A stretch of 64,000 bases of DNA from Candidatus Hydrothermales bacterium (GTDB taxonomy: Bacteria; Hydrothermota; Hydrothermia; Hydrothermales; JAJRUZ01), in the NCBI GenBank assembly GCA_039630575.1, contig JBCNUW010000002.1, forward strand, positions 1-64,000, read 5' to 3'. Below the pieces are notes generated by a model. It searched no databases, had not been told where the DNA came from, and worked only from the letters and a program-made list of their open reading frames with translations. Made by a program: the position numbers and the translations under genes. Below, piece after piece: positions 5,554-55,874 of the stretch (positions are counted from its first letter, which is position 1; every line of letters begins with the position of its first letter).

Positions 5554-7854
5554 CTACTCAATAGGAACATCGAGAAATTTTGGATATTCTTTATTCAAAA
5601 TTTTGTAAATTTCCTTTAACGTCTCTCTGAAGGAATAATCAAAGAAATTACCAGGTACTTCTTGATCTTTTCCATACCACCAAAACCAATCTGACCCCTC
5701 TGCTATAAAAATTTTTCTCATAACTTTTTCTCTCTTCTCACTATCAAGATCTTTTAGTAATTTTTCTATATCTTTTCTAACATAAGCAAGATATTCCCAA
5801 GCCTTATTTTCCTCAGGTTCTCCAATCCATGTTGCAAAATTTGCACCAATCCAAGAACCAGGAAAAAGATAATTAAGGGTATTTTTGGGTTTTTTCCATT
5901 CAATGTATTCACTGATAGTCATTGTTTTTATAAATTTAGCCTCATTTAGTGATTGATATAAGTTTTTCAAAAATTCCTTTCCGTCATGTGGATAATGCTC
6001 CCATGCATTTTCTCCATCCAAAATTACAGCTACAACAGGTGGGTTATCTTTTTCTTTCCAATAACGGTATATATTTGAAAGTTCTAAAATGAACCTGTTT
6101 GCCGCCTCAACAGGATCCATATTTTGATATACAAACCCTATTGCATCTGATAAACGCGTGTCCCTAAAAACTACGTAAACACTGTCGTTTCTGTTTTTGA
6201 CCTTATAGACCTTATACTTCTCCTCAAAAGTTAAAAAATTTTTGTTTAAACTTTTCATTAATACCTTTTCATCTGTTGCTATCCATTTTATTCCTGCTGA
6301 AGAAAATAAGGGGATAATTTCATAGGCAACAGATCCTTCAGCTGGCCACATACCATTAGGATTTTTACCAAAAATATCCTTATACATTTTTAGAGCTTCC
6401 TCTATATGCCATTTTGCATCTTCTGGATACGAAAAATCTACATCAGGAAGAGACACACCAGGTAGACCAGGTTTTGCCAATTTTATATCATAAATAAGAG
6501 GTAAGATTGGATGATAAAAAGGAGTTGTTGAAATCTCTATCTGACCTTTTTCCATTAATTTTTTATGTACAGAAATTATCGAATTTATTATTTTTTTATG
6601 AACCTCAACTATCCTTTTTACATCCTCCTCTTTAAAGTTCTTCCCCTTTGTTAGTAAATCTTTTACCGTTACTTTCTCTCCACTCTCAAGCATAACTTCC
6701 TTTTCTCTAAAATCAGGATCAAGCCAAGCTAGATTAAAATAAACTTTTAAATCTATAAGATCTTGGTCACTAAATTTTAATTTATTTAGTTTTTTATCAA
6801 GTAACTCAGAATATCTTGGAAAAGTTCTTATTACTTTATCCCAATTAGCATCAAAAAATCTTTCAATTAAATAATTTCTTTCCTCTTCTTGCATTTCTTT
6901 AATGGGTTTTAATGAAAGACGCATAGCTTTATCTTGTGTACCCTTCATTAAATCAAGAATCATCTCCAAAAGAGAAGGAGTTAAGTTTATGGTTAAATGA
7001 ATTTCTGGATAATCTTCAAGAATTTTTGCCATATCATAATAATCTTTCGTTCCATGTAATCTAACCCAAGGTGATAGATAATCACCAGTTTCATCCTTTG
7101 GATACCTCGGTTGATGCTGATGCCATAAAATCAAAAGAATAAGTGGAAAACCCCTATATTCTATCTCACTTGCTATTAATCTATCCCTTGGAATATGTTC
7201 TATTTCCTCTGATTTTTTTAGGATCTTTTTATCATGAGTTAGTATAAACACAGAATTGAATCCTCCAAATCCGTCATCGACCTTTGCAGGATTGTGTGGG
7301 TCTTCCTTCCATTTATGGTCATCTATAACAAATTTATACTCATACCTACCAGGCGGAAGAGGTATAATTATTTCAAAGAAACCGCCTTCCTTTTTTTCCA
7401 TAACATTTGCATTTTTATCCCAGTTATTAAAAGTTCCTGCAACACAAACTTTTTTTGCTTGTATATCAAAAAACCTAAACCTTACTCCGTGTTCTGTTAT
7501 CTCAAGTGATTCAATAAGCTTTGGTTCAGTAATAATTTTAAAATCCTCTGTTAATATAAAAGCTGAATTGAAACCTCCAAAGCCGTCATCTACTTTCCAT
7601 TTGTTATCCGGATCTTCTCTCCATAAGTTTCCATTTATTACGAACTTGTAAGTGTAAAATCCTGGTTTTAAAGAAAGTTCAATTCTAAAATTTCCCTCAG
7701 AAGTTCTTTCCATTGGATTTAAATAGGGATTCCAATTGTTAAAAGTACCTGCAATATTTACCCTTTCAGCCTCCGGAAAATAAACCTCAAAAATTACTTT
7801 GTTATTTTTACCTAAATAGATAACTGAAAAAAGTAGAAAGATTAACTCTTTCAT
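5554..7854 (-). CDS. GH57 amylopullulanase-type glycoside hydrolase with signal peptide and two N-terminal CBM48 modules
   Basis: Two AGTFNNW...Y.YKFVI...W.EDP.N..KVDDGFGGFNS modules; GH57 motifs HQHQP, TTPFYHPILP, WPAEGSV, FRD, ILDGENAWE, AEGSDWFWW. Confidence 0.92.
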   Translation of the reverse strand: MKELIFLLFSVIYLGKNNKVIFEVYFPEAERVNIAGTFNNWNPYLNPMERTSEGNFRIELSLKPGFYTYKFVINGNLWREDPDNKWKVDDGFGGFNSAFILTEDFKIITEPKLIESLEITEHGVRFRFFDIQAKKVCVAGTFNNWDKNANVMEKKEGGFFEIIIPLPPGRYEYKFVIDDHKWKEDPHNPAKVDDGFGGFNSVFILTHDKKILKKSEEIEHIPRDRLIASEIEYRGFPLILLILWHQHQPRYPKDETGDYLSPWVRLHGTKDYYDMAKILEDYPEIHLTINLTPSLLEMILDLMKGTQDKAMRLSLKPIKEMQEEERNYLIERFFDANWDKVIRTFPRYSELLDKKLNKLKFSDQDLIDLKVYFNLAWLDPDFREKEVMLESGEKVTVKDLLTKGKNFKEEDVKRIVEVHKKIINSIISVHKKLMEKGQIEISTTPFYHPILPLIYDIKLAKPGLPGVSLPDVDFSYPEDAKWHIEEALKMYKDIFGKNPNGMWPAEGSVAYEIIPLFSSAGIKWIATDEKVLMKSLNKNFLTFEEKYKVYKVKNRNDSVYVVFRDTRLSDAIGFVYQNMDPVEAANRFILELSNIYRYWKEKDNPPVVAVILDGENAWEHYPHDGKEFLKNLYQSLNEAKFIKTMTISEYIEWKKPKNTLNYLFPGSWIGANFATWIGEPEENKAWEYLAYVRKDIEKLLKDLDSEKREKVMRKIFIAEGSDWFWWYGKDQEVPGNFFDYSFRETLKEIYKILNKEYPKFLDVPIE

Positions 7855-12924: not shown

Positions 12925-14664
12925 TTAAAAGCGAAATTCAACACCCAATGTTAAAAGAAAAAGCTTTGATAAAAGTTTCTCTGATATTAAACTTATTCTA
13001 TTATACCTCAAATAGGAGTTTTTCATTAACTCAAGATTCGAACCCTTTTCGATAAGAAATATTCTTCTTGCCCATTCGTCCTCATCAAGTGTATAAGGAT
13101 CAAGTCCATAGGAAATAAAAAAGAAATTCTTTTCCTTTATTATTCTTCTTAATTCTAAATAAGGTGCAAGAAAGGAATTTTTAATTTTTAAATGAGATGC
13201 ATTAAAAACCATCAGTCTTAAATCTAAATATAATTCATAACTCTTTAAAAATTTATTAATTGATTTAAAAATAAACTCTGTAGCGATGGGAGAATAAAAA
13301 AATCCAGAAGATGAAAATCTTCCTATAATAGATATGGGCATAAAAGATGGTTTAACTTCAAAAATTATTGATAAAAGTTCTTTAAAACCCATAGAAAAGG
13401 TCTCAAAATACATAAGTTGATTTATCCTATGAAAATAAAAAAGATCACTAAAGGGAAATTCTTTTTTTAAATTAAAATAGTAGTGCTTTAACCTAAAAAT
13501 AATATTTTCACTTTTTAAAAATAAGCTTGAAATCAAAAGACCACCTCTATAGGTTCCCGGAAATTTTATAAAATCATTTAAATCATACTCCAAGGAAAAT
13601 CCACTTTTAAGTCGGGATGAATACATAAAAGAACCATAAAACCTCAAAAAATCTATTAATTTTATGGTATGTTTAAAGGGTTCCCCATTAGATTTTTCAT
13701 CTGCCCTCCAAAAGAGCTCTCCTTTTCCAGATGCGAAAATTAATTCAAAATTTCTTATTTTTTTCTTTAAATCTAAACTGAAAAAATTTTCTTCCTTATA
13801 GGAATTAAAAAAAATAAGTTTATTATCAATAGTAAGAGAATCTGGAGAAAGACTACCATAAGTTCTATCAAATCCCTTACTTTTAAAATAATTTAGTGCT
13901 AAATCTTTTAAAACACTGAACCTTGAAAAAATTAAATCTCTACCCTCCTTCCATCCATTAGAATAGAGAAAATCGAAATAAAAAATTTTTGACTTGTAAT
14001 TTAAAATAAAACCCTCTTCCTCTCTACCAAAATCCTTATGAAACTCTCCAATGTTTCCTGTTAGATCAAAAGGCTCAATTGAAGATAAAACAAATTTGTT
14101 GTAAAAACCTCTTATAAATAAATTACCTTCCCTTAGACTAAACTCAGCTCTTTCAAAAAAAACTGGTATGGCTCCGTCACCTTCAAGGTTTTTGCTCTGA
14201 TACCTCAACCTAATCCATAACATTGAATTATATGGAAAAAACCCTTTTATATCTAACTTCGAATCACCTATAGTGAGAATTTTTCTTAAAGTGTCTTCAA
14301 AGTTTAAATAAAACCTTATATCACCAGAAAAATTAACACTTTTGTTCCAATCAGTGTTTGATAATGTAAGTGGAATAATTTTTTCACCCTTTTCTGTAAT
14401 TTCAATTAAAGAATTTCCAAAGGTTCCAACTTTTAACGGATTCTCCGGATCATTTACCCAACTCCCATCTACTATGAACTTATACTCATACCTTCCAGGT
14501 TCAAGGTCTACCTCTATTTCCCAAAAGTCCCCCCTTTTTTCCATTTTTAAAGCCCCTTTTTCCCAATCTGTAAAATCTCCAGCTAGAAAAACTGACCTTG
14601 CATCGGGTGCTTTTATCTTAAATTTAATTGGATAAAGAATTAAAATTAAAATCAAAAATTTCAT
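12925..14664 (-). CDS. CBM48 (glycogen-binding) domain fused to a predicted outer-membrane beta-barrel
   Basis: Signal-like start, FLAGDFTDW...PGRYEYKFIVDGSWVNDPEN, then long alternating aromatic strands ending LTLGVEFRF (BAM beta-signal type). Confidence 0.75.
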   Translation of the reverse strand: MKFLILILILYPIKFKIKAPDARSVFLAGDFTDWEKGALKMEKRGDFWEIEVDLEPGRYEYKFIVDGSWVNDPENPLKVGTFGNSLIEITEKGEKIIPLTLSNTDWNKSVNFSGDIRFYLNFEDTLRKILTIGDSKLDIKGFFPYNSMLWIRLRYQSKNLEGDGAIPVFFERAEFSLREGNLFIRGFYNKFVLSSIEPFDLTGNIGEFHKDFGREEEGFILNYKSKIFYFDFLYSNGWKEGRDLIFSRFSVLKDLALNYFKSKGFDRTYGSLSPDSLTIDNKLIFFNSYKEENFFSLDLKKKIRNFELIFASGKGELFWRADEKSNGEPFKHTIKLIDFLRFYGSFMYSSRLKSGFSLEYDLNDFIKFPGTYRGGLLISSLFLKSENIIFRLKHYYFNLKKEFPFSDLFYFHRINQLMYFETFSMGFKELLSIIFEVKPSFMPISIIGRFSSSGFFYSPIATEFIFKSINKFLKSYELYLDLRLMVFNASHLKIKNSFLAPYLELRRIIKEKNFFFISYGLDPYTLDEDEWARRIFLIEKGSNLELMKNSYLRYNRISLISEKLLSKLFLLTLGVEFRF

Positions 14665-14668
14665 AAAT

Positions 14669-17600
14669 CTAATTCGTTAATCTTATGATCTTAAAGACTT
14701 GAACTTCACCTTTTTCCTTTTCAATCCTAATAAAGTAAATACCAGATTCTGTCTTCGGAATTTGAATTTTTTTGTCAAAAAATTTCTTTTCAAAAATCTT
14801 TCTTCCAGTAATGTCGTATATCTTTAAATTTAAATCTTTATCATAAAAGTTAAAGAAATATTTAGGGTTTATAGTATTAATAAAAAATTTACTTTCCTTT
14901 TTTTCATATTTTTCTTCTATCATCAAAATCTTCATTAGAATAAATTCTACAGGCTCAATTCTTAGGTTTAGTATTCTCCAACGGGGAACCTGCCACTCAA
15001 GAGAACCCTCGTTGAAGGTCTTGTAAGTACCTACTGCAAGATAAATTGAATCTGGATCACTTCCTAACAAGTTCCTTAAATAAATGACCCCCTCCATTAT
15101 TCCTGTATCGGAAGAAAAGGCCTTAAATTTAAAGTTAAAGGTATCATTTACAATATTTTCGAGAGAATCAAAGAATGAAATGAAGCTGTTATCATTCTCA
15201 TCAGCAAGAAAAAAATTATAAAAACCAACACTATCCTTTTTAGCCCATGGAGATTTCACAATCTTTTTATAGGGATTAAAGCTTATAAAAATAAAGTGAT
15301 CATTATTAAACCTATCATTGGAGTTTCCAGCAGCCTCTGTTGCTATATACAATCTTCCAGAATCTCTATCATAAAATCCCCAAAGATGCATTTGAGGATT
15401 CTCGGCAATAAGAGGAACACCGGGATCTAACTTACCATCCATTACAAAGTTTAATTTACCTACTATAAAGCTATCATTTCTGTTTAGCCATGAAATGTTA
15501 TAAGAAGAATCTTTTGCATAAATTGTATAAATAATTTTAGTTCCATTAGGATGAGGCGATATTATACCCTTATAAGTATAAGATGAATCCTTTTTCATTA
15601 AAGTCTTAAAAATATTAATCCAGTTGTTATTTGTCCAGTATAAAATAACTGAATCAACTCCCGAGGGATCAATAGCTTTAATTTTTACTGTTACAGAGTC
15701 AGAGGAAGTAATATTATAAACTGGATTTCTTTGAAGATCAAAAAGAAGAGGACCTTCACGATCACCAGGTCCAATAAAAGGTAGGTCAGGAACACCTCTA
15801 CCAGCATAAAGATATATGTTAAAGTTTCCAGATATATTTCCTATTTCAACTTTTTCTCCAGCAAAGACCCTTGATATTAAATTAAATTTTAAACCTATGC
15901 CAGACTCCCAAAGGATAAAAACACCTCTTCCTGATTTTCTGTTTCTAAAGCCTCCATACATCCAACCGTTAGGTGAGATATCATTTTCAAAATCAAGATT
16001 ATAATAATTAAAAATAAGATAGTAAAGATCAGGTGAGAAAACAGCCTTAGACCATATTATATATGGCGAGCTATAAGTTAATTTTATAAAATTTTTACCT
16101 CTTTTAAAAGAATATGTTTTTAAAATACCTTGACTTTCAAAAGAAATAAAAGCATTTCCGGTGTCAGAATAAAAACTATAAAGATTATACAGATTGTTCT
16201 CAAAAAAAGCATCTTCACCAAATCCTGAATGATTGTAATCAGAATGATCACCCTCCCCTTGCCAATAAGTAAAAAAGTTTCCAATATAAACAGAACCTGA
16301 AGAATCACAGAGAAATACCATTTTTCCTCCTATTCTTTCGAAAACTGCAAGAAATACATCTGTTCCTATCACGTATTCCATGAATCCATCCCCATCTATA
16401 TCGGCTGAATCCTTAAAAACACTTCTTGTAGAATAAAGCCAGTTTGAAGCGTAAGCAAAAATATTTGCTTTTCCTGTATGATTCCATAAATTTCTCCCCC
16501 AAAAAACAAGTTCACCTCCAGGACCTGAATGCCAAGCTGTTTCGTATAAAAGGGAATTTAAAGTTAAAAATCCAAGAATTTTTAAATTACTACTTTGTAA
16601 ATTTTTAAGACTATTCCATGAAAAGAGCCATAAATCCTCATAGTCTCCTTTTATTCCATTTAGATTTATGTCAGGAGCGTCATGATCAGTTCCATAGGCT
16701 TTAACACTCTTAAAGTGATTGTACCAGTTGTCATAGTTTCCACCCGTCCATCCATGAAGTTCATGGTATGCTGAATAGTTAATATAAATAGTTGGTGGGT
16801 CGTTGTATGGATTTTGGTCATATATTCTGTCAACACCCCACCATTTTGCAGCTTCAGCAACATGGATGGGTTGCATCCACCCTTCGTTTCTTGCTGAGGA
16901 AAGCCAAGCAATGTTAGCATCATAAGAGTTTGAAGGTGCTCCAGCATATCCAAAATCCCAACCTGCAACACCTGCAGCTTTTTCCCAATCATCACCATAA
17001 ACACAAATTTGTTCTTGATCCCATGAATTTGCAAGATCCTGAAAGTGAGTATACAAAAATGTATTTGGAACATAATTCCATACCCAAAAATCTCTTGCAT
17101 GTTTTTGAATAAAAATAATAAATACTCGATGACCATCCTCTATCATTTGATGCACCTTATGACTGTTATAACAGGGTGTGCCATCAGGGAAAGTGTGACT
17201 GTACCATTCGTGAACGTTATCATCTAAAAGTATACATGGTGACACATGTCTACCCCATGAATCTTTTTTACCGTAAATTGAATCTAAGAGTGCCACAAGA
17301 GAGTATGGCATTAAATTTTTGCTTTTAAAAACTCTCTCAGGAATCCATATAACCGTAGGATGGTCTGGCCATCCCTCACCTTTTATAAGTGAATCGTCTT
17401 GTATTCTTTTGATTATAAAACCAAACTTATTTATCTCTCTTGCAGCATAAGGTAAGATATTTTGTCCATAAACACTTCCAACAATATCAACAAGATCACT
17501 TTCTAAACGACTTAAAAGTCCCCTATCATTTAAAAAAAAGGCATAAGAGCTTGTTAAAGTTCCAGAAATATGGATATCAACAGGGATGTTATAATAGAAA

Positions 17601-17755
17601 TGGGAGTCAAGGACTCTATGGTATGAATTTCCGTTATAATTTTGATCCCCTGGTCTTAAAGCGTAAAAGCCGTTATCTCCAAAATGTTGATTGCCGTGAT
17701 GGACAAAGGCAACCTTTGCTGTTCCACTAAATAAAAAAATTAATATTAAAACCAT
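14669..17755 (-). CDS. Divergent multidomain GH57-like glycoside hydrolase with T9SS-type C-terminal domain
   Basis: HHGNQH, WIPERV (nucleophile position), YGDDWEK (acid/base position), DIDGDGFMEY..GG resembling the 4-alpha-glucanotransferase C-domain, tail KIYDITGRKI...SGIYFIRI...KIIR. Confidence 0.7.
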   Translation of the reverse strand: MVLILIFLFSGTAKVAFVHHGNQHFGDNGFYALRPGDQNYNGNSYHRVLDSHFYYNIPVDIHISGTLTSSYAFFLNDRGLLSRLESDLVDIVGSVYGQNILPYAAREINKFGFIIKRIQDDSLIKGEGWPDHPTVIWIPERVFKSKNLMPYSLVALLDSIYGKKDSWGRHVSPCILLDDNVHEWYSHTFPDGTPCYNSHKVHQMIEDGHRVFIIFIQKHARDFWVWNYVPNTFLYTHFQDLANSWDQEQICVYGDDWEKAAGVAGWDFGYAGAPSNSYDANIAWLSSARNEGWMQPIHVAEAAKWWGVDRIYDQNPYNDPPTIYINYSAYHELHGWTGGNYDNWYNHFKSVKAYGTDHDAPDINLNGIKGDYEDLWLFSWNSLKNLQSSNLKILGFLTLNSLLYETAWHSGPGGELVFWGRNLWNHTGKANIFAYASNWLYSTRSVFKDSADIDGDGFMEYVIGTDVFLAVFERIGGKMVFLCDSSGSVYIGNFFTYWQGEGDHSDYNHSGFGEDAFFENNLYNLYSFYSDTGNAFISFESQGILKTYSFKRGKNFIKLTYSSPYIIWSKAVFSPDLYYLIFNYYNLDFENDISPNGWMYGGFRNRKSGRGVFILWESGIGLKFNLISRVFAGEKVEIGNISGNFNIYLYAGRGVPDLPFIGPGDREGPLLFDLQRNPVYNITSSDSVTVKIKAIDPSGVDSVILYWTNNNWINIFKTLMKKDSSYTYKGIISPHPNGTKIIYTIYAKDSSYNISWLNRNDSFIVGKLNFVMDGKLDPGVPLIAENPQMHLWGFYDRDSGRLYIATEAAGNSNDRFNNDHFIFISFNPYKKIVKSPWAKKDSVGFYNFFLADENDNSFISFFDSLENIVNDTFNFKFKAFSSDTGIMEGVIYLRNLLGSDPDSIYLAVGTYKTFNEGSLEWQVPRWRILNLRIEPVEFILMKILMIEEKYEKKESKFFINTINPKYFFNFYDKDLNLKIYDITGRKIFEKKFFDKKIQIPKTESGIYFIRIEKEKGEVQVFKIIRLTN

Positions 17756-19074
17756 ATCTTAACCCTTAATCTTATTATATCATAAATTTTTTGAAATTGA
17801 GAATCAGAAAAATCAATATCATTGACAAGGTCAAAATCTGTTACATAACCTTCACCATATTCAAGGTAAAGTTCTTTTCCTGAACTTATGTAGCCTATTT
17901 GCAAAAAAGCACTTTCCCATGTAGCAAAATCACTCCTCCCCTGCGCAGCTCTAAAATAAAAATAGAAATTCCTTTTTAAGTTTATTTTACCCTCTACACC
18001 AAAGAGAACTCTTTCACCTATTGAATAGGGACTATTATGAACTCCTATGTCCTTAATTTTAAGCTGTACTTTTAAAAGATAGTTAATTTCTTCCTTTTTT
18101 AACTCAAAAAATAAATTTCTCCAAGTCTCTCTTATTTCATCTACAATTTCGTAAAATGTTTTAAAGGAATAGCCATTTATAAATTCTATATAAATTTCAC
18201 TTTGCGAAAATAAAAAATTGAAAGGTTTTTCGTAATATTTACCGTAAAGATTTTTTGTTCTATAAAAATCAAACTTTTCAGTTAAAGTTATGGATTTGTA
18301 TGGGAAAAAGAAGTTTATTTCACCTTTAAATCCTTTTTTTCCCCATTCTTTACCTATATATGAGAATCGGTTTGAAAAGGGTGTTCTGAAGCTGTCATCA
18401 ATAAAGTATTTGGAAAGAACAAACCTAAAGGGTCCTAAATACATATTTGATACTTCTGTAGCAAAAGCGCTACCTTTTAAAATATTTGAATACTCAAAGG
18501 TTAAAAATCCTTGAAAAATGCCAAATCTTAAAAAGATATCGTACAGTTCATAGATTTTATTTTCATAAAAATTTTTCTTATTTGCGTAAATAATTTGGTT
18601 TTCACCAAATTTTTTAAATTTTAAAGAAAAAATATTTATATCTGAATTTTCAGTTCTTTTTGATTTTGAAAAAAGGTGGTTTACTTCAAAACTTTTTAAA
18701 AATTTTAAATTTAACCTTGCTCCCTCAGATTTTGCCCCAAAATCATCGTCCCTGATCCTCTCGGGCGAAATTACAAATAAAAGTGGACTTTCAAAAAAGT
18801 GCCTATCCTCACGAGCAAAAAAAACAAGATATAAGGGCTTATAAAATTCAACATGACCCTGTAAGTATAAAAGCTTACTTCTCTGAAAGGTATTCTCCAT
18901 CATATAGGAAAGATAAGTATTTATAATTTCACTGCCATAAAAATACTTAAGTTCAAAATGAGCTCTATAAAAATTTAGTTCCCAATTTACAGGTTTTGAC
19001 AGCCTTTCAAATTTACTTTCGTTCTCAAAATAAAAGTTAAGAGAATAAAATGAAAAAATAATAAAACTAATCAT
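17746..19074 (-). CDS. Predicted outer-membrane beta-barrel protein
   Basis: Short hydrophobic leader, aromatic-rich amphipathic strands, ends IRLRVKIWF. Confidence 0.65.
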   Translation of the reverse strand: MISFIIFSFYSLNFYFENESKFERLSKPVNWELNFYRAHFELKYFYGSEIINTYLSYMMENTFQRSKLLYLQGHVEFYKPLYLVFFAREDRHFFESPLLFVISPERIRDDDFGAKSEGARLNLKFLKSFEVNHLFSKSKRTENSDINIFSLKFKKFGENQIIYANKKNFYENKIYELYDIFLRFGIFQGFLTFEYSNILKGSAFATEVSNMYLGPFRFVLSKYFIDDSFRTPFSNRFSYIGKEWGKKGFKGEINFFFPYKSITLTEKFDFYRTKNLYGKYYEKPFNFLFSQSEIYIEFINGYSFKTFYEIVDEIRETWRNLFFELKKEEINYLLKVQLKIKDIGVHNSPYSIGERVLFGVEGKINLKRNFYFYFRAAQGRSDFATWESAFLQIGYISSGKELYLEYGEGYVTDFDLVNDIDFSDSQFQKIYDIIRLRVKIWF

Positions 19075-19778
19075 CTCTTCAATTCGAAAGTTGCACCTGT
19101 CGATAAACCAAGATAAGAGTTATTCTCAAGGGATATCATAAAGGCTCTATCTTCAAAGGAAAGTCCAATTCCAGTGTTTGTAAAATTTTCTGAAAAAGAT
19201 AAAAATATAGAAATTGGCTTTAAAAAAAGGTAAAATCCAGTTTTATAAATTTCACTTTCTTTTGAAATAAAAATATTAAATTTCTCAATTGGTGAGTAAT
19301 TTAAACAAATGTGATAATCTTTTGATTCAAAAGAGTTTAAAATATGTCTAATATTAAAAGATAATACTAAACTGCCTTTGACAAAAGAACTTCCAACATC
19401 AAAATCAAAAGATGCTTTGTTTTTAAAAGATGAGTTAAGTAAAAGATAGTTTAATGAAGTTGATAAAGCAAAACTTCTAATTTTCTTTGCAAAACCTAAT
19501 AAAAATTCTGTTTCTGAATAATTTTTAAGTTTCTTTTGAAAGATGGTAAGAAAGGCAAATTTTTTAAAAGATAAGGAAAAATGCACTTCATTCCATTCTT
19601 TTATACTGTAAGGATTTCTGTAATCAAAATAAAAAAGGAAATTTCTATCAAAAAAAGATATAAGGGAAGGATAAAAAGAAGTTGACGAGAAAAAGTTAAG
19701 ATCAGCTGAACCAGTGAGTCTCAAAAATGAAGAGGGTTTAAAATCAAATAGAGCATAGAAAAATAATAGAATTATCAT
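19071..19778 (-). CDS. Small outer-membrane beta-barrel, PorP/PorV-like
   Basis: FYPSLIS..YRNPYSIKE recalls the NPA-type N-terminus; FDFDVG strand; ends GATFELKR; follows a CTD-bearing gene. Confidence 0.5.
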   Translation of the reverse strand: MIILLFFYALFDFKPSSFLRLTGSADLNFFSSTSFYPSLISFFDRNFLFYFDYRNPYSIKEWNEVHFSLSFKKFAFLTIFQKKLKNYSETEFLLGFAKKIRSFALSTSLNYLLLNSSFKNKASFDFDVGSSFVKGSLVLSFNIRHILNSFESKDYHICLNYSPIEKFNIFISKESEIYKTGFYLFLKPISIFLSFSENFTNTGIGLSFEDRAFMISLENNSYLGLSTGATFELKR

Positions 19779-20749
19779 TTTAAAACTTTTATAACTTTTT
19801 TTTCTTTTAATTTTCCTTTTATATCAAGAAGAAGAATGTATAATCCCTGTTTTTCTATTTTAAAAATAAATTCTTTAAGTTCATCTGCCACAATAAAACC
19901 GTTATAAATTTTTTTATAAACTTTTCCATCTTCTCTTATAAGAACTAGATCAATATACGAGGTTTGTGATAATTTTATTTGGGCTTTTACACTGTTTCCC
20001 TCAAAGATGATTTCTCTGTCAAGGATAAACTCCTTTAAGTTTATCCTTTCAAACCACTTTTCCTCTATTTCTGTCTGTTCGAAAGGTTTAATTCCTGAAT
20101 CTGGTTTTGAGTCAAAATTTTTATCAATATGGATTTTTAGAATTCTTCTTACATGTTCAGGAGGGATCCCGTCAACATCTTCATTGTCTGGTAAAATATC
20201 ACCAGCACCAGAGTGATCACCTCCAGCTATAAAAGAGATTATAACAATACTTGCGTTCTGTTTAAAATTTTCACCAAAAAAAATATTAAATGGAATTTTT
20301 GCTTCCAAAATACTATTTTCACCTGATTTTCCCTTATTGAAAATTTCAATATTTGAAGTCAAATCACTTGTTGATCCGTTAATACTAATTTTTCTAAAAC
20401 CCCCTTTTAAAAGGTCTCCGTCCCATAGAGCTATCATAAAGTTGGCACTAAACCCAACAAGTTTTATATTTCTTGGATAAAAGTTAAGATTATCAAGATC
20501 CTGTAAACCTTCTTCTCCAACATTAAAGATGATTAAAAGTGCATTGTTTTTTACAATATACTCGATACCTAAATATAAGTTACTTTTATCCCATGTTATA
20601 TAGAGGTCTTTAACTTCATTTTGTAACCCCCAATAACTGTCGCCAAAATTATCAGAGTAAACTTTTTCATAATCAAGAAAATCACTTAAATCTCCATCTA
20701 TATTTATGGTGTGATAAGTAAGGTTGAAAAATAAAAATATAAATAACAT
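19775..20749 (-). CDS. Exported DOMON/CBM9-like protein with Ig-like T9SS-type C-terminal domain
   Basis: YHTINIDGDLSDF, LYITWDKSNLYLGI, LEAKIPF; tail DGKVYKKI...GLYILLL...KKVIKVLK. Confidence 0.6.
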   Translation of the reverse strand: MLFIFLFFNLTYHTINIDGDLSDFLDYEKVYSDNFGDSYWGLQNEVKDLYITWDKSNLYLGIEYIVKNNALLIIFNVGEEGLQDLDNLNFYPRNIKLVGFSANFMIALWDGDLLKGGFRKISINGSTSDLTSNIEIFNKGKSGENSILEAKIPFNIFFGENFKQNASIVIISFIAGGDHSGAGDILPDNEDVDGIPPEHVRRILKIHIDKNFDSKPDSGIKPFEQTEIEEKWFERINLKEFILDREIIFEGNSVKAQIKLSQTSYIDLVLIREDGKVYKKIYNGFIVADELKEFIFKIEKQGLYILLLDIKGKLKEKKVIKVLK

Positions 20750-21958
20750 TCAGTTTCCTTCTAATAACTTTTTAATTCGATCCTGCAAATTTTTTTGGAC
20801 TTCTTCAATTTCTTTTTCACCCTTTATAAATGGGGAGATTTCTTGTATATAGATTCTTTCCACTTCAGGATATTCCGCGACAGGTGCTCTTGGTTTGGTA
20901 CTTTCTATAGCTTTTATTAAAGTTTCCATAATTTTATTTTCTTTGAGGTCTATCATAGAGACTACTTTTTTGTTAACAGGAATTTGACCGAGAGTTTTAG
21001 CCCATTTAAGTTGAATTTCTTCGGAAATAAGGTATTTAAGAAATTTCATAGCATTTTCTTTGTTTTTTGAATTTTTAAACAATACCATCTGAGTGCCACC
21101 AAGTGCTGTGAATGATCCAGCTTTTCCCTTAGGAATCAAAGCAATTCCAAAGGGAAAGTTTATATCCTTAAGACTTTTTATTTTCCAAGGACCAGAAAAA
21201 ATCATAGCATATTTTTCATTTATAAAACCCATGTCTGGATTAACAGCACCTTCAAGAAAGGCACCGCCTTCAACTTTATGTTTTAAATAAATATCTCTTT
21301 TGAAAATCAGTGCTTCTTTAAAAGCTTCATCAAGAAAAAGTGGGTTACCTTGTTTATCAAAGACTTCAGAACCAAAGGTATAAAAAAATGGAAGGTCCCA
21401 CCATAAAGTATTTCTCATTCCAAACCCGTATATTCCTCTTTTTAAATCTGTCAACTTTTTTGAATATTCGAGGAATTCTTCCCAAGTGGAAGGGGGTTTT
21501 AAGCTATCAAGTCCTTTTTCTGCAAACAATTTTTTGTTATAAAAAAGTAGTATGCATGTTACCTGATCTGGTATCCCATAGAGCTTTCCATTATAATAAG
21601 AGGATTTCAAAGGAGCTTCGTATAAATCTTTTAAAATATCAACAAAGTAATTTGTATCAAGTTCTGCAAGTATACCTTTTTTAGCAAGAAGATAAACTTG
21701 AGCTATATCAAGTCTTGAAATATCTGGGTTTTGTCCAGCTATTACAGAGGTTAGTATTTTCTCGAGCATTCCTTCAAAGGGTACTCTTTGAACATTAATC
21801 TTTATATTGTGAGATTTTGTAAATTCTTTTACTATTTCATTAAAAACTCGGAATTCTTCGTCATTATAGGAAACCCATACTGTAAGTCCCCTTTTAAAAT
21901 CTTCTTTACAGAAAGCAAAAAAGGTTATAAAGAGAATAAATAGAAAAAATTTTTTCAT
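20750..21958 (-). CDS. Sugar (maltodextrin-type) ABC transporter substrate-binding lipoprotein
   Basis: MKKFFLFILFITFFAFC, YNGKLYGIP, LFYNKKLF, PPSTWEE, AMIFSGPW. ATG at 21958 preferred over the track's 21976. Confidence 0.88.
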   Translation of the reverse strand: MKKFFLFILFITFFAFCKEDFKRGLTVWVSYNDEEFRVFNEIVKEFTKSHNIKINVQRVPFEGMLEKILTSVIAGQNPDISRLDIAQVYLLAKKGILAELDTNYFVDILKDLYEAPLKSSYYNGKLYGIPDQVTCILLFYNKKLFAEKGLDSLKPPSTWEEFLEYSKKLTDLKRGIYGFGMRNTLWWDLPFFYTFGSEVFDKQGNPLFLDEAFKEALIFKRDIYLKHKVEGGAFLEGAVNPDMGFINEKYAMIFSGPWKIKSLKDINFPFGIALIPKGKAGSFTALGGTQMVLFKNSKNKENAMKFLKYLISEEIQLKWAKTLGQIPVNKKVVSMIDLKENKIMETLIKAIESTKPRAPVAEYPEVERIYIQEISPFIKGEKEIEEVQKNLQDRIKKLLEGN

Positions 21959-21997
21959 ATCTTTATTATAAAGCAATATTTTTTTTATAATAAAAAC
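21959..21997. promoter_or_regulatory. Back-to-back divergent -10 boxes in a 39-bp gap
   Basis: TATAAT on minus at 21965-21970 and on plus at 21986-21991, each 6 nt from its ATG; no SD on either side. Confidence 0.6.
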
Positions 21998-23308
21998 ATG
22001 GTTGAGAAAATTTTAAAAAAAATCAAAAATAAGGAAATAAAAATTGGTGTTATAGGGCTTGGTTATGTTGGTCTTCCATTAAGTGAGCTTTTTCTTAAAA
22101 AGGGTTTTAAAGTTCTTGGATACGATGTCTCTGAAGAAAAAATTGTTAATTTTCAAAAAGGACAATTTGAAATAGAGGATGTAAATACAGTTTTTCTTAG
22201 TGAAAAAATTAAGTCAAAAGAATTTATCGTAAGTAGTAAAGAGGAAATAATAAATGAAATGGAAGCAATTTTTATATGTGTGCCCACACCTGTTACAAAA
22301 GAAAGGGTTCCTGATCTTTCTTATGTAATTACGGCTGCTAATTCTATCAAACGAAACATGAAAGAGGGTCAAATTATTGTATTGAAATCAACTACTTTTC
22401 CTGAGACAACTGAGAAAATTTTACTTCCAATTTTTGAGGATAAAGATTTCAAAGTAGGAAAGAACTTTTATCTTGGTTTTGTACCAGAGAGAGTAAATCC
22501 TGGTGATAAGGTATTTACAATTGATAAGATTCCTGTAGTTACAAGTGGTGTTACAAAAAATTGTTTAAAGTTAATAAATGCCATATACAATGAGATTGTT
22601 CCATCTATTTTTCCAGTTTCCTCTCCGAAAATAGCAGAGATGAGTAAAATTTATGAAAATATATTTAGAAATGTAAACATAGCGCTTTCTAATCAGATGG
22701 CAGTTTTATGTGATAGGATGGGAATTGATATATGGGAAGTAATTGAGGCAGCGAAAACAAAACCCTTTGGTTTCATGCCTTTTTATCCTGGACCAGGTGT
22801 TGGAGGACATTGTATACCTGTTGATCCCTATTATCTTTCCTTTAAGGCAAAGGAATATGATATGGAACTTGATTTTATAACTCTTGCTGCCAAAGTAAAC
22901 GATGAAATGCCTTACTATGTTGTAGAAAGAATTATAAGGATTTTAAATAAAGAGAGAATTTTGCCTCCTGAGTCAAAAATACTTATTTTAGGTGTCGCCT
23001 TTAAAAAAGACATAAAGGATATAAGACATTCTCCTGCAATAAAGATTATCTCTATTTTGGTCAATTTAGTAAAGAAAGTTGAATATATTGATCCACATGT
23101 ACCTGAAATTAAGGAATTAAATAAAAAGAGCTTGAAATATAAAAGTGATATTTTTAAATTATTTGATCTTGTTGTTATATTGACAGATCATTCTGATTTT
23201 CCTTATGAAGAAATATACGAAAATTCAAAACTTATATTTGATACAAGAGGAGTTTATAAGGTAAAAAGTAAAAAAATTTATAAACTCGGAGAGGGAAAAA
23301 AAATTTAG
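21998..23308 (+). CDS. Nucleotide-sugar dehydrogenase (UDP-GlcNAc/ManNAc 6-dehydrogenase, WbpA/WecC family)
   Basis: GLGYVGLP, ICVPTP, KSTTFP, PERVNPG, GPGVGGHCIPVDP, AFKKDIKDIRHSP. Confidence 0.92.
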   Translation: MVEKILKKIKNKEIKIGVIGLGYVGLPLSELFLKKGFKVLGYDVSEEKIVNFQKGQFEIEDVNTVFLSEKIKSKEFIVSSKEEIINEMEAIFICVPTPVTKERVPDLSYVITAANSIKRNMKEGQIIVLKSTTFPETTEKILLPIFEDKDFKVGKNFYLGFVPERVNPGDKVFTIDKIPVVTSGVTKNCLKLINAIYNEIVPSIFPVSSPKIAEMSKIYENIFRNVNIALSNQMAVLCDRMGIDIWEVIEAAKTKPFGFMPFYPGPGVGGHCIPVDPYYLSFKAKEYDMELDFITLAAKVNDEMPYYVVERIIRILNKERILPPESKILILGVAFKKDIKDIRHSPAIKIISILVNLVKKVEYIDPHVPEIKELNKKSLKYKSDIFKLFDLVVILTDHSDFPYEEIYENSKLIFDTRGVYKVKSKKIYKLGEGKKI

Positions 23309-23342
23309 TTTATCTTTATAATTTAAAAAAGGAGGAAATAAA

Positions 23343-25328
23343 ATGAAACTCTTAGCCTTTTTTGTTATACTTCATTATATAAACGTAGATGGAAATCCAA
23401 GCGATTGGATAGGAACACCTCCGAGTTTGGTTCATGATTTTACATTTTCTGGAGGTGAATTTATATATAAAGGTGATTTTAACGATTTTAGAACAGATTT
23501 AGGCAATACTTTGTATCTTGACATCACCGAATTCAGGTTAACATGTGATAATACTTGGATTTACTTTTTGATAAAGTTTAACGATATTGGTCCTTTTGAT
23601 AGGGATTTAATTCATATTGAAATTTCATTAGGAAATCCTAATGATCCAACAAGATATGAGTGGATAGGTGATGATGCACAACTTGGTCTTACCCGTAGGG
23701 CTTTAGCCGATAGGATCATAGCCCTTCATTCCACAACCCCTTCAAATTTTAACATAGAAATGTGGGATGGAGGGGTTTGGTATGCACCTCCTACTCCTGG
23801 GTATCTTGCAGTTGTGAGTGATATTTATAACTGTGTTGAAGCAAGAATATCTCTTAATGATGTTGCTGATGGATCTTTAATTTTGCCCTCAGTAATAAGA
23901 ATTTCACTTGTAAGTTTTAAAAACAACGTAGGTTGGAATAACGATATTGATGCAACAGCTGACATAGGGGGTATTCCGATTAATGATGGAATTGATGTTA
24001 TGGGAGGTAAAAAGGGAGTATCAGAGAATGCTTGGTTTAGGGATTTAAGTGATAATTTGGTAAACAGCTTCTTTGATATTCTATTAAAGAGAAATGGTGA
24101 TGCCCGTAATTTTAAAAGAATTGTAGATGGTTCTCCTACAGACTGGATAGGTTCTCTTCCTTCACAAATTCATGAAGTTATATATTCAAAGAGAGAGTGG
24201 ATCTATAGAGGCGATATAGGTGATATGAGAGAGGATCCACATGTTCCTGATGATTCGGTTTTTGATTTGAAAGAATTAAGATTAACTGTTGATAGTGTAA
24301 ATCTATATATACTTGCCAAGTTTCATAAAATGGATTTTCAGGAGACCCAGATAGCTCTTTCTGTTGATAAAGACCAAAATCAGGGAGATGACCTTTTGAA
24401 AATTAACGGTGATGATACAGGAACTAACCTTTCTCAAAGTATCCAATATTCTGAAAGAGAAGTTATTTTAACAGCTGATTCGGTGAATCATGCTGAGATT
24501 TTCCTATTTGCTGATGATGGTTCATTGTGGTATACCCCAGTTTCACCATATAGAATTGTAATTGATCCTATTAATAAAACTATTGAAGGAAGAATTTTAC
24601 TTTCTGATTTAAGCTTAAAGCCTAATGATACAATAATTTTATCAGGTGCAAGCTATGATGCAAATGTTCAGGGTATTGGCAACAGTCCTAATGGTTCTGA
24701 TAATCCTGCAACTCCGCAGATTGAGGAGGGAGATATGAGTGTTGACTACATGGTTTGTGATGCCTTAGATGTGATTGGTGGGAATGTGGGAGTTTCTCAA
24801 AATTCTTGGATTAGAGATTTACAAGATGGGGATTTAGATTTTTATTATACTGTTTATTTACAAAATATCTTGCAGCCACTTGGTTTTTTTGAGGAGTTTG
24901 TTGTTTTTGAAAATAAGGAATATGGAATACTGATAAGGTATAGTATTGATACAGAGGATGAAATTGAAATTCTTAAAAAGCAAGAAAATGGTGAGTATTA
25001 TAGGATTTTTAGTTCAAAACAGAAAGATGGAGTGTATTTAGATAAGGACGTTATTCCCTCAAAAGTGTACTTTTATTTATTAAAATCAGGGGATAAAATT
25101 TTTGGTCCTTATAAAGTTATTTATCAAAGAGTTTATGAGAAAGCTTTAAAGATTTATAATTTTGATTTTATATATTTACCTGAGATGAAAAATTTAATTA
25201 TATTTGATGTAGGAGGTAGAGGAAGGTTGATGGTTGGAGAGAAGAAAGTGAGGCTTTATGATTTTAGAAATGGCGTTTATTTTATAAGGGATAGGGATAA
25301 AACATATAAGGTTTTGAAAGTGAGATGA
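23343..25328 (+). CDS. Exported protein with two tandem DOMON-like repeats and T9SS-type C-terminal domain
   Basis: [10 protein letters not shown]...DITEFRLT...DVMGG and [10 protein letters not shown]...DLKELRLT...DVIGG; tail IFDVGGR...NGVYFIR...KVLKVR; SD AGGAGG. Confidence 0.7.
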
Positions 25329-26215
25329 AAGTTTTTTTTCCTTTTTTGTTAGTTATTCCTTTTCTTTTTATATTTCTTATTTTTCTTTTTTTTCCCTTAT
25401 TTTTTTCCCTTTATTTGAGTTTTTTTAAAATTGAAGACTTTTATAATCTTTTTGGTTCTTTAAGGTTTGTTGGTTTTGAAAATTTTATTAACTTAATAAA
25501 AAATCCTGAGGTTTTATGGTCAATTGTTGCAAGTTTTATTTACGGAATTTTTTATGTCCCTATACTCTTAACTGTTTCTCTTTTTCTCGCAACTTTACTT
25601 TCTCCTCCCCTTTTAAGGCTTAAGAAGTTATTCAGAACTATTTACTTTTTCCCATTTTTACTGGACACTTTTGTCGTTGGAATTGTTTTAACCTTAATTT
25701 TAGCTTTTCCCTACGGATATATTTTTAAGTTACTTTCTTTGCTTAAAATAAGTGGATTTTTTAAGGAGGGATTTTTATCAGATCCTTATCTTGTGTTTTT
25801 AACAGTTTCAATTTCTATGGCTATCAAAAATTCTGGTTTTGGTATGTTATTAATTCTTGCAGGTATGCAGTCTATTCCAGAATCTTTGTATGAGGCTGCG
25901 AAAATTGACGGAGCAAATTCTTTTGAAATCTTCAGGCATATTACTTTTCCTTTAATAAAGCCTATTTGTTATTTTATTGGTTTTTTTGGTTTCATTGGTG
26001 CTTTTTCTTCCTTTGCTGAATTTTATTCAATGACAGGGGGTGGTCCACAGATAAAACTTTTAGATTACAGTTTAAGTGAGACAAATGTATCAGGTCTTAT
26101 TCTTTACAGGTTAGCTTCACAGCTTAAGTTACCTGAGGCATCAGCTTTTTCACTTATCCTCTTTGTTATCTTTTTATTTATATACTTTTCTACTAAGGGT
26201 TTTAAAGAAAAATGA
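25325..26215 (+). CDS. Carbohydrate ABC transporter permease (MalF/UgpA type)
   Basis: FVGFENF, EAA loop [21 protein letters not shown]. Confidence 0.92.
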
Positions 26216-27006
26216 AAAGGTATTTACTCCTTTTATTTTTCTCACTTTTATATATTTTTCCCTTTTACTTTATGCTTCTTGTAGCTTTTAGACCAGAAGT
26301 TTTAGCGCTTAGTATGAATCTTTTGCCTTCAAATCTTACTTTTGAGAATTTTGTTAGAATTTTTAAGTACCATAACTTTGGAAGATACTTTATAAACAGC
26401 TTGATAGTTGCTTTTTCAGGAGCTTCTATTTCAACCTTTTTAGCATTTATCTGTGCTTATTCCTTTGCAAAAGAGAATTTTCTGTTTAAGGGTTTTTTAT
26501 ATAACCTATTTGTTTCTACACTTCTTGTTCCAGGTATTCTTTTTATGATTCCTCAATTTCTGATAGTTGTATATTTAAGATGGCTTGATACCTTTTTGGG
26601 ACTTGTTGTTCCTCATCTTGCTAACGTTTTTGGTTTCATTTTTTTGACGGAGTATATAAAGAAAATTCCCGATGATTTAATTTATGCAGCAATAATTGAT
26701 GGGGCTTCTAAAATTAGAATTATATTTAATATTATTTTTCCTCTTTCGATGCCTATGCTTCTTACAATTTTTCTTCTAAATTTTCAGTTTCATTGGAACA
26801 ACTTTTTATGGCAACTTCTTGTAACAACCAAAAATAGTATGTTTACAATTCCTGTAGGTCTTAATAGTTTAACCTCAATGTATCAGGAATACTTTGGAGC
26901 AAAGATGGCAGGAGCTTCTCTTTCTATAGTACCTGTTGTTTTACTCTTTTTAATCTTTCAAAGATACTTTATTCAGGGTATAATAAGGGGGGGGCTTAAA
27001 TTTTAA
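26212..27006 (+). CDS. Carbohydrate ABC transporter permease (MalG/UgpE type)
   Basis: [38 protein letters not shown]. Confidence 0.92.
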
Positions 27007-54881: not shown

Positions 54882-55874
54882 TTTAAACTTATAGAGATCT
54901 TTTTCTCTAACATAAAAAATAACATTTTTATGTTCAGGCTTTTTATTAGATATAATCTTTATTTCATCTTTTTTAAAATTTAAATTTATTTTATCAAAAA
55001 CAATATCAACAAGTTCACATCTTAAAAGATAGTATTCACCTAAAAAGTCGTAGCTATTTACTCTTACGTAGAATTCATAGTTTTTACCTTCTAATTTTGT
55101 AAAAGAGAATTTCTCCGGTCTAACACAAAGAATATAATTTTCTGATTCAATTTTATTAATTCCGTGAGATCCAAAAAAGTTAGCAACAAAAAAATTTTGT
55201 GGATTTTCATAAATTTCTTCTTGTGTTCCGATTTGCATTATTTCTCCTTTGTTTAATATGCATATTCTGTCAGCAAGTGTCATTGCTTCAATCTGATCAT
55301 GTGTTACATAAATAGTAGTAATATTCAAATTTTTTTGGAAATTTTTAAGTTCAAACCTCATTTCAGTTCTAAGTTTTGCATCAAGGTTGGAAAGAGGTTC
55401 ATCCATAAGAAAAATTTTAGGATTTCTTACAAGTGATCTTGCCAATGCCACTCTCTGTTGCTGTCCACCTGAAAGTTCTGACGGTTTTTTTGATAGAATA
55501 TCCTCTATTTTTAAAAGCTCAGCAACCCATTTTAGCCTTCTTTTTTGCTCTTCTTGTTTCATTTTTCTTATCACCAACGGAAAAAGAATATTCTCTGATA
55601 CTGTCATATGAGGATAAAGGGCATAATTTTGAAAAACCATTGCTACATCCCTCTTAGCAGGATCTAAATTTGTTATGTCTATATCTTCAAGAATTACTTT
55701 ACCTTTATCTGGCTTTAAAATTCCTGCAATAATCTTTAACAGTGATGTCTTTCCACATCCAGATGGTCCTAAAATAACAAAAAATTCACCTTTTTTTACT
55801 TTTAAATTAATATTTTTTAGTATCTCCTCTTTTCTAAATTTTTTAGAAATATCTATGAGTTCAAGATAGTTCAC
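54873..55874 (-). CDS. Sugar ABC transporter ATP-binding protein (MalK/MsmX type)
   Basis: [50 protein letters not shown]. Confidence 0.93.

Follow-up and report, generated by a model that had tools for sequence, protein, structure and literature searches.

Introduction

The enterobacterial maltose/maltodextrin system consists of LamB, MalS and MalEFGK, and similar systems combining a porin with an ATP-binding cassette (ABC) importer are those of CymA and ChiP; maltodextrin ABC operons are also carried by Thermococcales. Here we describe a locus of another composition, found in a stretch of 64,000 nucleotides (contig JBCNUW010000002.1, positions 1 to 64,000; the whole stretch is called the window below) from the genome of a Candidatus Hydrothermales bacterium (WOR-3). 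The locus is with high probability a system for the utilization of alpha-glucans (starch or glycogen). Its core is a pair of large predicted outer-membrane barrels, barrel A (442 amino acids, aa) and barrel B (579 aa), encoded together with an ABC importer, enzymes of glycoside hydrolase family 57 (GH57) and cargo of the type IX secretion system (T9SS). The sequence-only reading from which this work started had proposed that alpha-glucans are used by way of T9SS cargo, new barrels, an exported GH57 enzyme and ABC import, with neither SusD nor LamB, all of which was supported; its set of three porin-like barrels was not, and its carbohydrate-binding cap at the cell surface is unlikely.

In its presumed logic the system resembles LamB/Mal, with a passive outer-membrane channel, a periplasmic alpha-glucan hydrolase, an importer dependent on a substrate-binding protein (SBP), and cytoplasmic phosphorylase and amylomaltase. 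It differs in having no 18-strand maltoporin LamB and in encoding paralogous barrels predicted to have 24 and 22 strands, one of them fused to a carbohydrate-binding module of family 48 (CBM48), as well as CBM48 lipoproteins, GH57 enzymes and T9SS cargo. The hallmark of the starch utilization system (Sus) and of the polysaccharide utilization loci (PUL) of Bacteroidota is the SusC/SusD pair, according to the accessible part of PMC12016534. As in those loci, surface binding proteins, a surface hydrolase, an outer-membrane barrel and a periplasmic hydrolase for one polysaccharide are clustered, and by domain homology proteins for binding and for hydrolysing one and the same glycan appear to be encoded together; unlike them, the locus has no SusD and no plug-bearing TonB-dependent transporter (TBDT), relies on ABC import and has surface parts delivered by the T9SS instead of lipoproteins only. 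The system likely works like LamB/Mal with Sus-like surface parts, but is a member of neither.

Among atypical loci, the closest precedent is chu_1276-1280 of Cytophaga hutchinsonii, presented in the accessible part of PMC12016534 as an atypical cellulose PUL, with CHU_1276 reported to resemble TBDTs. Compared by description only, the two are alike in using a polysaccharide without canonical SusC/SusD and in combining a binding protein and a hydrolase with two proteins of the outer membrane; they differ in that the substrate there is cellulose and that this part of the source describes no ABC importer or CBM48-barrel. In literature listings, whose coverage leaves out most subscription papers, no description of the barrel pair or of the arrangement was found, and the terms searched for the barrel arrangement do not occur in PMC9582752. 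The system is built on an undescribed outer-membrane module.

Gene Content and Conservation of the Locus

On the minus strand, the genes for the SBP, a 324-aa protein, a 235-aa protein, barrel A, a 1028-aa protein and barrel B follow one another at distances of 0, −4, −4, −10 and +4 nucleotides (nt), which bears out the gene set, order and tight overlaps first claimed for this strand. On the plus strand, a gene for a UDP-sugar dehydrogenase, overlooked in the sequence-only reading, precedes those for a 661-aa protein and permeases F and G (−4 and −4 nt), which that reading had placed correctly. It had also rightly located a gene for a protein with two CBM48 domains and a GH57 domain (2×CBM48-GH57, 766 aa) about 5 kb away, the distance from position 12925 being 5.07 kb, and MalK beside a DOMON-type protein (Table 1). 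Searches with Pfam and NCBIfam assigned CBM48 to barrel B, a T9SS tail (TIGR04183) to the 1028-aa protein, and the sugar SBP, two permeases and MalK to their classes; among the scattered genes, Glucodextran_C was found in the 327-aa protein beside MalK, and 2×CBM48 plus GH57 in the 766-aa protein. The 442-, 235-, 324- and 661-aa proteins themselves matched no family, and the term DOMON-like, applied earlier to the 324- and 661-aa proteins, holds through their relatives.

In the source genome (94.7% complete) no match was obtained to SusD (PF07980) or LamB (PF02264), while the controls were matched in B. thetaiotaomicron and E. coli, respectively. Five TonB-dependent receptors (TBDRs) were matched, all outside the locus. 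The absence of SusD and LamB claimed earlier therefore extends to the whole genome, and that of SusC to the locus only.

The distribution of the genes was determined in a sample of 272 genomes of the phylum; since the carriers, from eight families, are kin, no significance test was applied. The 1028-aa GH57-like protein was found in 29 genomes (30 before a match in G063 with E 4e-4 and an internal stop was dropped), barrel A in 30 and barrel B in 28, with a union of 31 genomes and all three proteins in 26. Among the five exceptions, G224 and G226 gained barrel B on inspection of their loci, and the remaining three are fragmented genomes, 80-94% complete. In most genomes with the gene set, barrel B comes directly after barrel A and is succeeded by a gene for a small CBM48 lipoprotein, to which one for an X25/DOMON lipoprotein is often added; in family f3 the two barrels are separated. 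In the window's own genome, these CBM48 and X25/DOMON lipoproteins, both conserved and both out of sight of the sequence-only reading, are encoded on another contig (C45:18293-20043), near glycogen genes.

In G260, which belongs to a different family of the phylum, the order is permease F, permease G, SBP, barrel A, barrel B, CBM48 lipoprotein, X25/DOMON lipoprotein, GH13, GH57-like protein and phosphorylase, facing MalK and 2×CBM48-GH57. Since nearly all the genes thus stand in one locus there, those scattered across the window belong together, as the sequence-only reading had assumed, although two of the proteins, the 661-aa one and the 1028-aa GH57, have an accessory status only.

Sequence inspection of the same contig C45 also revealed a cytoplasmic glycogen cluster (G000:C45:3247-12480) with GlgC-, GlgA-, GH57-, GalT-, GlgB- and MalQ-like genes, about 6 kb upstream of the two lipoprotein genes.

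Outside the phylum, the barrel A profile gave 79 matches against 1.84 billion representatives, and the 20 that were looked up included some Elusimicrobiota and Cloacimonadota. As the broad alignment was too divergent, pattern scans were made with two barrel A sub-clades (7 and 10 of the 79 representatives), and the 75 loci recovered (58 from genomes, 17 from metagenomes) are biased to these sub-clades and partly redundant. The titles of the genome loci name Eisenbacteria, Krumholzibacteriota, Zixibacteria, "Fibrobacteraceae" or no group; the label "Fibrobacteraceae" is doubtful, two such loci grouping with Krumholzibacteria in the tree. A CBM48 or barrel B gene comes after barrel A in all 60 loci with at least 500 nt downstream, and the barrel B profile matched in 49 of the 52 with enough room. 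A PorV-like gene stands before barrel A in 57/62 distant loci and DOMON/CBM cargo upstream of it in 41/51. In the long distant loci, sugar ABC genes are nearby in 32/37 and GH57 or GH13 in 23/37. Single deviations were seen in L163, where barrel B has no fused CBM48, and in L172, with no ABC or glycoside hydrolase genes nearby; L067 was dropped from the barrel B alignment. The neighbourhood survey, a check suggested with the sequence-only reading, thus found the genes co-occurring and clustered in many other genomes, within and beyond the phylum, and the gene set is not a chance assembly.

One of the distant loci (L160:12463-15162) encodes, by sequence inspection, a CBM48 membrane protein with a histidine-kinase-like tail, a candidate alpha-glucan sensor.

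The Two Predicted Barrels

The AlphaFold model of barrel A (predicted local distance difference test score, pLDDT, 87) showed 24 strands and no plug domain, with residues 1-432 forming the barrel only; that of barrel B (pLDDT 85) showed a CBM48 followed by a 22-strand barrel, also without a TonB plug domain. In structure searches, barrel A was closest to 24-strand ushers (Z 18, root-mean-square deviation 5.7-6.1, 6-7% identity) and barrel B to the barrel of FyuA (Z 16.2), with porins and other barrels scoring nearly equal; maltoporin 1MPR ranked 18th-19th for both (Z about 13.5). Prediction and fold search of the large barrels, as proposed for this DNA beforehand, thus gave 24- and 22-strand barrels that match no specific characterised family. 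The likeness of barrel A to fimbrial ushers is limited to the strand count: its model has no plug and no periplasmic N- or C-domains, and neither the window's locus nor the loci read gene by gene contained recognisable genes for chaperones or pilins.

At the sequence level, 0/28 barrel A members matched a relevant Pfam family at E ≤ 1, and a search of the PDB with the barrel A profile returned one chance match only. A first protein search with barrel B gave only 5 close sequences, all from WOR-3. CBM48 was found in 68/68 barrel B members, rows that had been chosen by, and trimmed to, their CBM48; Plug (PF07715) was matched by 0/68 at E ≤ 0.1, and PF00593 weakly by 3/68 (best 1.6e-5). In the Atlas, both barrels lie near clusters of DUF6029 (feature similarity 0.96 and 0.93; template-modelling score, TM, 0.52-0.59), and a 78-member CBM48-barrel cluster (TM 0.75) is commonest in Fidelibacterota. 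This similarity to DUF6029 (PF19494) and Wzi-like barrels, in language-model features and moderately in predicted structure, may reflect a distant kinship with DUF6029, itself an uncharacterised family; the barrels differ from it in gene context and in that the Pfam profile matched 0/28 barrel A and 0/68 barrel B members.

Alignment of the two families with hhalign, using 68 paired sequences, gave a probability of 97.9% and E 3.5e-13 over 409 columns, from which barrels A and B are concluded to be paralogues. The signal grows with depth, from E 0.36 with three-sequence profiles and E 6e-5 with 26-28 sequences. The C-terminal end is aromatic or aromatic-Pro in 65/65 fetched pairs, the partner rows having been filtered for a hydrophobic last residue. 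The trees of the barrels are congruent (39 of 45 supported splits in common, as kin would trivially share), and their lengths, 27 for barrel A and 45 for barrel B, indicate a slower rate of evolution in barrel A. Its inward-facing positions, assigned approximately from hydropathy alternation, include many near-invariant Glu, Arg, His, Tyr and Trp residues.

In the CBM48 of barrel B, W34, K62 and N84 do not vary, and W69 is conserved at 91%; these are residues with a role in glycogen binding in AMPK. An even-stranded outer-membrane barrel has both termini in the periplasm, and since the CBM48 is N-terminal to such a predicted barrel, it should be periplasmic or lumenal. A CBM48 "cap" at the surface, as first envisaged, is hence unlikely on the predicted topology. 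The three porin-like barrels of the same proposal were not supported: the 442- and 579-aa proteins are large predicted barrels, but the 235-aa protein probably belongs with the PorV/PorQ family and is rejected as a sugar porin.

Two barrel A relatives (P0100 and P0109) have about 200 extra N-terminal residues, which presumably resemble a CsgG/TolB-N-like domain.

Type IX Secretion Cargo and the PorV-Like Barrel

The 235-aa barrel itself gave no match to NF033709 (PorV_fam), but 2/9 of its aligned relatives did (best E 4.4e-6), and its positional equivalents in distant loci matched the window's own PorV directly. Like the PorV/PorQ shuttles, these relatives match PorV_fam and come after a gene for cargo with a C-terminal sorting domain; unlike them, the 235-aa protein is shorter, divergent and probably dedicated to one cargo next to barrel A. 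On sequence grounds, its likely role is to shuttle the cargo encoded upstream, as part of the T9SS, or to anchor it at the surface.

That cargo, the 324-aa protein, was matched in 30/30 gene-set genomes, in 28 of them at the level of orthologues or split orthologues. Its relatives carry Por_Secre_tail (8/17), FlgD_ig (7/17) and CHU_C, a type-B signal (6/17). Its profile matched the starch-binding CBM74 of Sas6 weakly (E 0.002), and its long positional equivalents carry Glucodextran_C (E 1e-25 to 1e-38). In distant loci, the protein whose gene precedes the PorV-like one has a hydrophobic tail that terminates in Lys or Arg in 44/44 cases (one masked). From these features the 324-aa protein is likely a surface glucan-binding protein. 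The 661-aa protein is patchy, with strong matches in 5/35 genomes tested, and relatives of the 327-aa protein come after the SBP in 10 distant loci.

Signal peptides and C-terminal sorting domains are accompanied by a T9SS in the genome: a SprA-like translocon scored above its family cut-off (G000:C3:35479-40698) and a PorU-like gene elsewhere below it. With TIGR04183 on the 1028-aa protein, tails on the relatives of the 324-aa protein and SprA, the T9SS cargo proposed earlier was supported by sequence.

The order of cargo, PorV-like gene and barrel parallels a receptor-partner-PorV module of the same genome (C12:127854-134170). This parallel suggested the reading of the cargo as a lid, and is itself no independent evidence for it. 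A canonical PorV/PorQ-family gene lies in the window at 35606-36643, and four more PorV-like paralogues are present in the genome. Further DOMON proteins were noted in G260. A second cluster (C2, L190:4359-14962) encodes a GH57, a DOMON protein of the 327-aa type, a 1407-aa protein of the 661-aa type and a 1128-aa DOMON-repeat T9SS protein, and within the main locus a 1488-aa protein (L010:13706-18172) has DOMON-like repeats and a C-terminal propeller resembling pyrroloquinoline quinone (PQQ)/BamB domains.

GH57 Enzymes

A profile of 46 sequences of the 1028-aa protein matched 1K1W, the 4-alpha-glucanotransferase of Thermococcus litoralis (TLGT), with E 7e-10. E140, D256 and E258 are invariant in these sequences, and E140 and D256 align with E123 and D214 of TLGT, the proposed catalytic pair according to the accessible part of 10.1101/2023.08.25.554913. 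The 1028-aa protein itself did not match PF03065, which many relatives carry, and the motifs of its branch are HHGNQ, WIPER, GDDWEK and YETAWH. Thermococcus GH57-CBM53-Glucodextran_C proteins are among its relatives. Its gene adjoins the barrels only in the window's genus, in G260 and in 1/37 long distant loci.

The 766-aa protein matched a solved GH57 of 477-484 aa (E 1e-83) and contains the motifs HxHQP, WPxE, DGEN and AEGSDW, with E506 and D613 at the positions of the catalytic dyad; the motifs of that solved relative are those given for the Aquifex amylopullulanase AaApu in the accessible part of PMC12106739. By its motifs, the protein is amylopullulanase-like, with alpha-1,6 activity as a prediction only, and it is likely periplasmic, since its signal peptide is not accompanied by a T9SS tail. 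The 2×CBM48-GH57 gene stands inside the barrel locus in G260 and in 14/37 long distant loci. Both GH57 proteins keep the catalytic residues by alignment. GH57 motifs, catalytic residues and DOMON/Glucodextran_C modules are common to the present system and to AaApu, TLGT and the Thermococcales operons; the present system differs in its adaptation to a cell with two membranes, by T9SS tails and barrels, and in that the 1028-aa protein represents a divergent, uncharacterised branch.

ABC Importer and Probable Substrate

The SBP (with a putative lipoprotein-like signal at Cys17), the MalF- and MalG-type permeases and the MalK-type ATPase were assigned to the sugar ABC class, all below the equivalog cut-offs for MalE, MalF, MalG and MalK; at this class level, the ABC import part of the original proposal is supported. 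Orthologues of the SBP occur in 36/272 genomes, namely 30 of the 31 gene-set genomes and six of two further families (f42 and f43), and in all 20 loci fetched around SBP orthologues the next gene is that for the 324-aa cargo, if a short match in G224 is included. In four of the six f42/f43 genomes, the SBP and permeases lie beside GH13, GH57 and phosphorylase genes, and in three beside MalQ as well. Given this company, with MalQ in f43, the substrate of the importer should be of the maltodextrin type. In at least two f42/f43 loci a TBDR, plugged and divergent in f43, adjoins the permeases; as a lead only, the f43 receptor is a possible alternative outer-membrane step.

In the f42/f43 loci read (L173, L174, L176, L177 and L178), GH13 is fused to GH57 in f43, where MalQ is also found.

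Proposed Mechanism and Alternatives

The steps given here were put together from the observed gene content, order, domains and catalytic residues and from the predicted barrel folds, and are meant as conditional. Secreted DOMON/Glucodextran_C cargo, probably kept on the cell surface by a PorV-like barrel of its own, would bind the glucan, which in WOR-3 a T9SS-secreted GH57, with location and activity presumed from its domains, would likely cut or disproportionate there. The maltodextrins would then pass through the 24-strand barrel A, whose interior is its most conserved part, passively and without TonB energy. The paralogous 22-strand barrel B likely lies beside it in a presumed pair with its CBM48 on the periplasmic side, where this domain and the small CBM48 lipoproteins may trap incoming chains. 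These would likely be debranched and trimmed by the periplasmic 2×CBM48-GH57 amylopullulanase, joined in many genomes by a CBM48-GH13. Short maltodextrins would be imported by the SBP, the two permeases and MalK, and used by cytoplasmic glucan phosphorylase and amylomaltase.

That the two barrels form the outer-membrane conduit by which alpha-glucan sugars reach the ABC importer is, given the models, the reading we favour and hold to be reasonably probable. Several observations weigh against it. The only cultured WOR-3 strain (sy37) did not grow on starch or maltose, according to the accessible part of PMC12285271, which would count against the reading if this strain carries the genes. The nearest solved relatives of the SBP are mixed sugar binders, maltose and acarbose binders included. 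With the broad profile, applied to five of the six f42/f43 genomes, barrel A was found in none (one weak fragment, E 0.004), so that the barrels are not obligatory for the ABC/GH57 part. The interior of barrel B is poorly conserved, with few near-invariant inward positions. Fold searches of both barrels gave generic matches only (Z 16-18, 6-8% identity), set by strand number, with no specific or characterised relative, a result which does not show that the barrel fold is new. No GldM match was obtained in the source genome, nor a true positive in the control; SprA and a PorU-like protein without GldM could possibly mean a T9SS lacking the Bacteroidota motor.

The main competing explanation accepts the alpha-glucan locus and makes the barrels a surface scaffold or T9SS accessory displaying or docking DOMON cargo and CBM48 lipoproteins, with the sugars entering through general porins or a TBDR encoded elsewhere. 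The nearly constant PorV-like gene (57/62) and type-B-tail cargo with its Lys/Arg end (44/44) before barrel A agree with it, the conserved interior of barrel A could bind protein instead of sugar, five TBDRs are available in the genome, and the f42/f43 genomes manage without barrel A. We nevertheless regard it as unlikely: SprA and PorV proper are encoded elsewhere, the position of a CBM48 on the periplasmic side of barrel B is best understood if this is where glucan arrives, and the queries used, which did not include TBDRs, revealed no further outer-membrane transporter in the distant loci, of which eight were read gene by gene. Energised transport, with barrel B as a TBDT derivative in which CBM48 replaces the plug and TonB is encoded elsewhere, is very improbable. 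It would account for the 22 strands, the FyuA match, the three weak matches to PF00593 and the exbB/exbD-like genes on contig C12, but no member matched Plug, a TonB box would hardly fit between the short signal peptide and the CBM48 that directly follows it, the paralogue of barrel B is a barrel with 24 predicted strands, and porins and other barrels score nearly as high as FyuA.

An outward direction of transport, in which the barrels would export or anchor alpha-glucan or capsule made by the cell, as Wzi- and DUF6029-type porins near export genes might, was rejected as the main role and is given very little weight. The Atlas proximity to DUF6029 and the UDP-sugar dehydrogenase speak for it, as does a possible role of DUF6029 in polysaccharide secretion, suggested tentatively in the accessible part of PMC9603273. 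Against this, Pfam finds no DUF6029 in either barrel, the dehydrogenase is confined to the window's genus, and queries for glycogen synthase and GlgC matched 0/75 distant loci (OPX and Wzx/Wzy were not searched directly); export is made further unlikely by the nature of the conserved partners, which comprise hydrolases and binding modules as well as an importer that depends on an SBP. Just as improbable is the import of another oligosaccharide with repurposed CBM48 and GH57 domains. The best solved matches of the SBP do include non-maltose binders and the 1028-aa GH57 is too divergent for PF03065, yet every identifiable enzyme or module (CBM48, GH57, GH13, phosphorylase, MalQ, Glucodextran_C) is of an alpha-glucan type.

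If the conduit reading is followed further, the locus might, tentatively, represent a third architecture of glycan uptake, next to SusC/SusD driven by TonB and to trimeric sugar porins: a TonB-independent heteromeric pair of 24- and 22-strand barrels, with a PorV-tethered, glucan-binding T9SS lid outside and CBM48 traps and GH57/ABC sinks inside. In WOR-3, Eisenbacteria, Krumholzibacteriota, Zixibacteria and further phyla without cultures, it would possibly be the standard machine for starch and glycogen. The locus offers a concrete candidate for the passage of glycan fragments in two-membrane bacteria without SusC/SusD and LamB, and its gene order links an unannotated barrel family with enzymes of alpha-glucan use across several phyla that are uncultured. 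For lineages whose annotation consists largely of hypothetical proteins, a likely carbon source can be named, and with it media for their enrichment. T9SS parts appear wired to an ABC importer outside Bacteroidota, and the locus further adds a GH57 branch that is uncharacterised and what may be a large-pore channel for oligosaccharides.

Coordinates, Start Sites and Neighbouring Genes

Table 1. Features of the probable alpha-glucan locus and of the scattered genes assigned to it (window positions).
Feature	Position	Strand	Basis
Barrel A, 442 aa, core gene of the system	17746..19074	-	AlphaFold 24-strand plug-less barrel, three long loops
Barrel B, 579 aa, N-terminal CBM48 + predicted 22-strand barrel	12925..14664	-	Pfam CBM48/AMPK1_CBM; AlphaFold
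235-aa PorV/PorQ-like small barrel	19071..19778	-	NF033709 PorV_fam matches of relatives; position before barrel A
324-aa T9SS cargo, DOMON/CBM9-like + type-B-like C-terminal sorting domain	19775..20749	-	Domains of relatives
1028-aa divergent GH57, type-A T9SS tail	14669..17755	-	Profile match to 1K1W; T9SS tail TIGR04183
Sugar ABC SBP, 402 aa from ATG 21958	20750..21958	-	SBP_bac_1/8
39-nt back-to-back promoter region	21959..21997	.	TATAAT 6 nt before ATG, each strand
UDP-sugar dehydrogenase, local passenger	21998..23308	+	TIGR03026
661-aa two-repeat DOMON-like T9SS-type protein, accessory	23343..25328	+	Internal repeat; related to G260 protein matching Glucodextran_C
Sugar ABC permease, MalF-type	25325..26215	+	BPD_transp_1; orthologues adjoin barrels in G260 and distant loci
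Sugar ABC permease, MalG-type	26212..27006	+	BPD_transp_1; orthologues adjoin barrels in G260 and distant loci
Signal peptide-2×CBM48-GH57, 766 aa, amylopullulanase-like	5554..7854	-	Pfam; solved GH57 match
MalK-type ABC ATPase	54873..55874	-	Pfam/NCBIfam; within barrel locus in G260 and several distant loci
327-aa Glucodextran_C/DOMON protein, T9SS-like tail	55877..56860	-	PF09985 E 9e-8

The TATAAT hexamers on both strands of the intergenic region between the divergent arms are consistent with leaderless transcripts. In the whole genome, a TATAAT-to-ATG spacing of 5-8 nt was found at 104 sites, against 20 for a control hexamer, which suggests that leaderless transcripts are widespread in this WOR-3 genome. 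Because this spacing is enriched, the SBP start was placed, as the most likely one, at ATG 21958 rather than at TTG 21976. A scan for consensus promoters and terminators remained at chance level (82 against 86.6). A TATAAT-like hexamer is likewise present upstream of 7854, the start of the 2×CBM48-GH57 gene.

Two neighbours were considered as members of the system and rejected. The UDP-sugar dehydrogenase was seen in only three loci, all of the same genus, among L001-L172, and a 379-aa membrane protein of no known family, encoded downstream of barrel B (11711-12850), in same-genus loci only.

The exported proteins encoded at 12925-20749 and 23343-25328 have signal peptides of about 10-12 residues, rich in Phe, Ile and Leu, with often little or no charge in the N-region. 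Towards the end of the window, a gene for an OmpA/DUF4892 protein (56917-57849) adjoins a row of alpha-2-macroglobulin, transpeptidase and SpoIID-domain genes (57854-63812).

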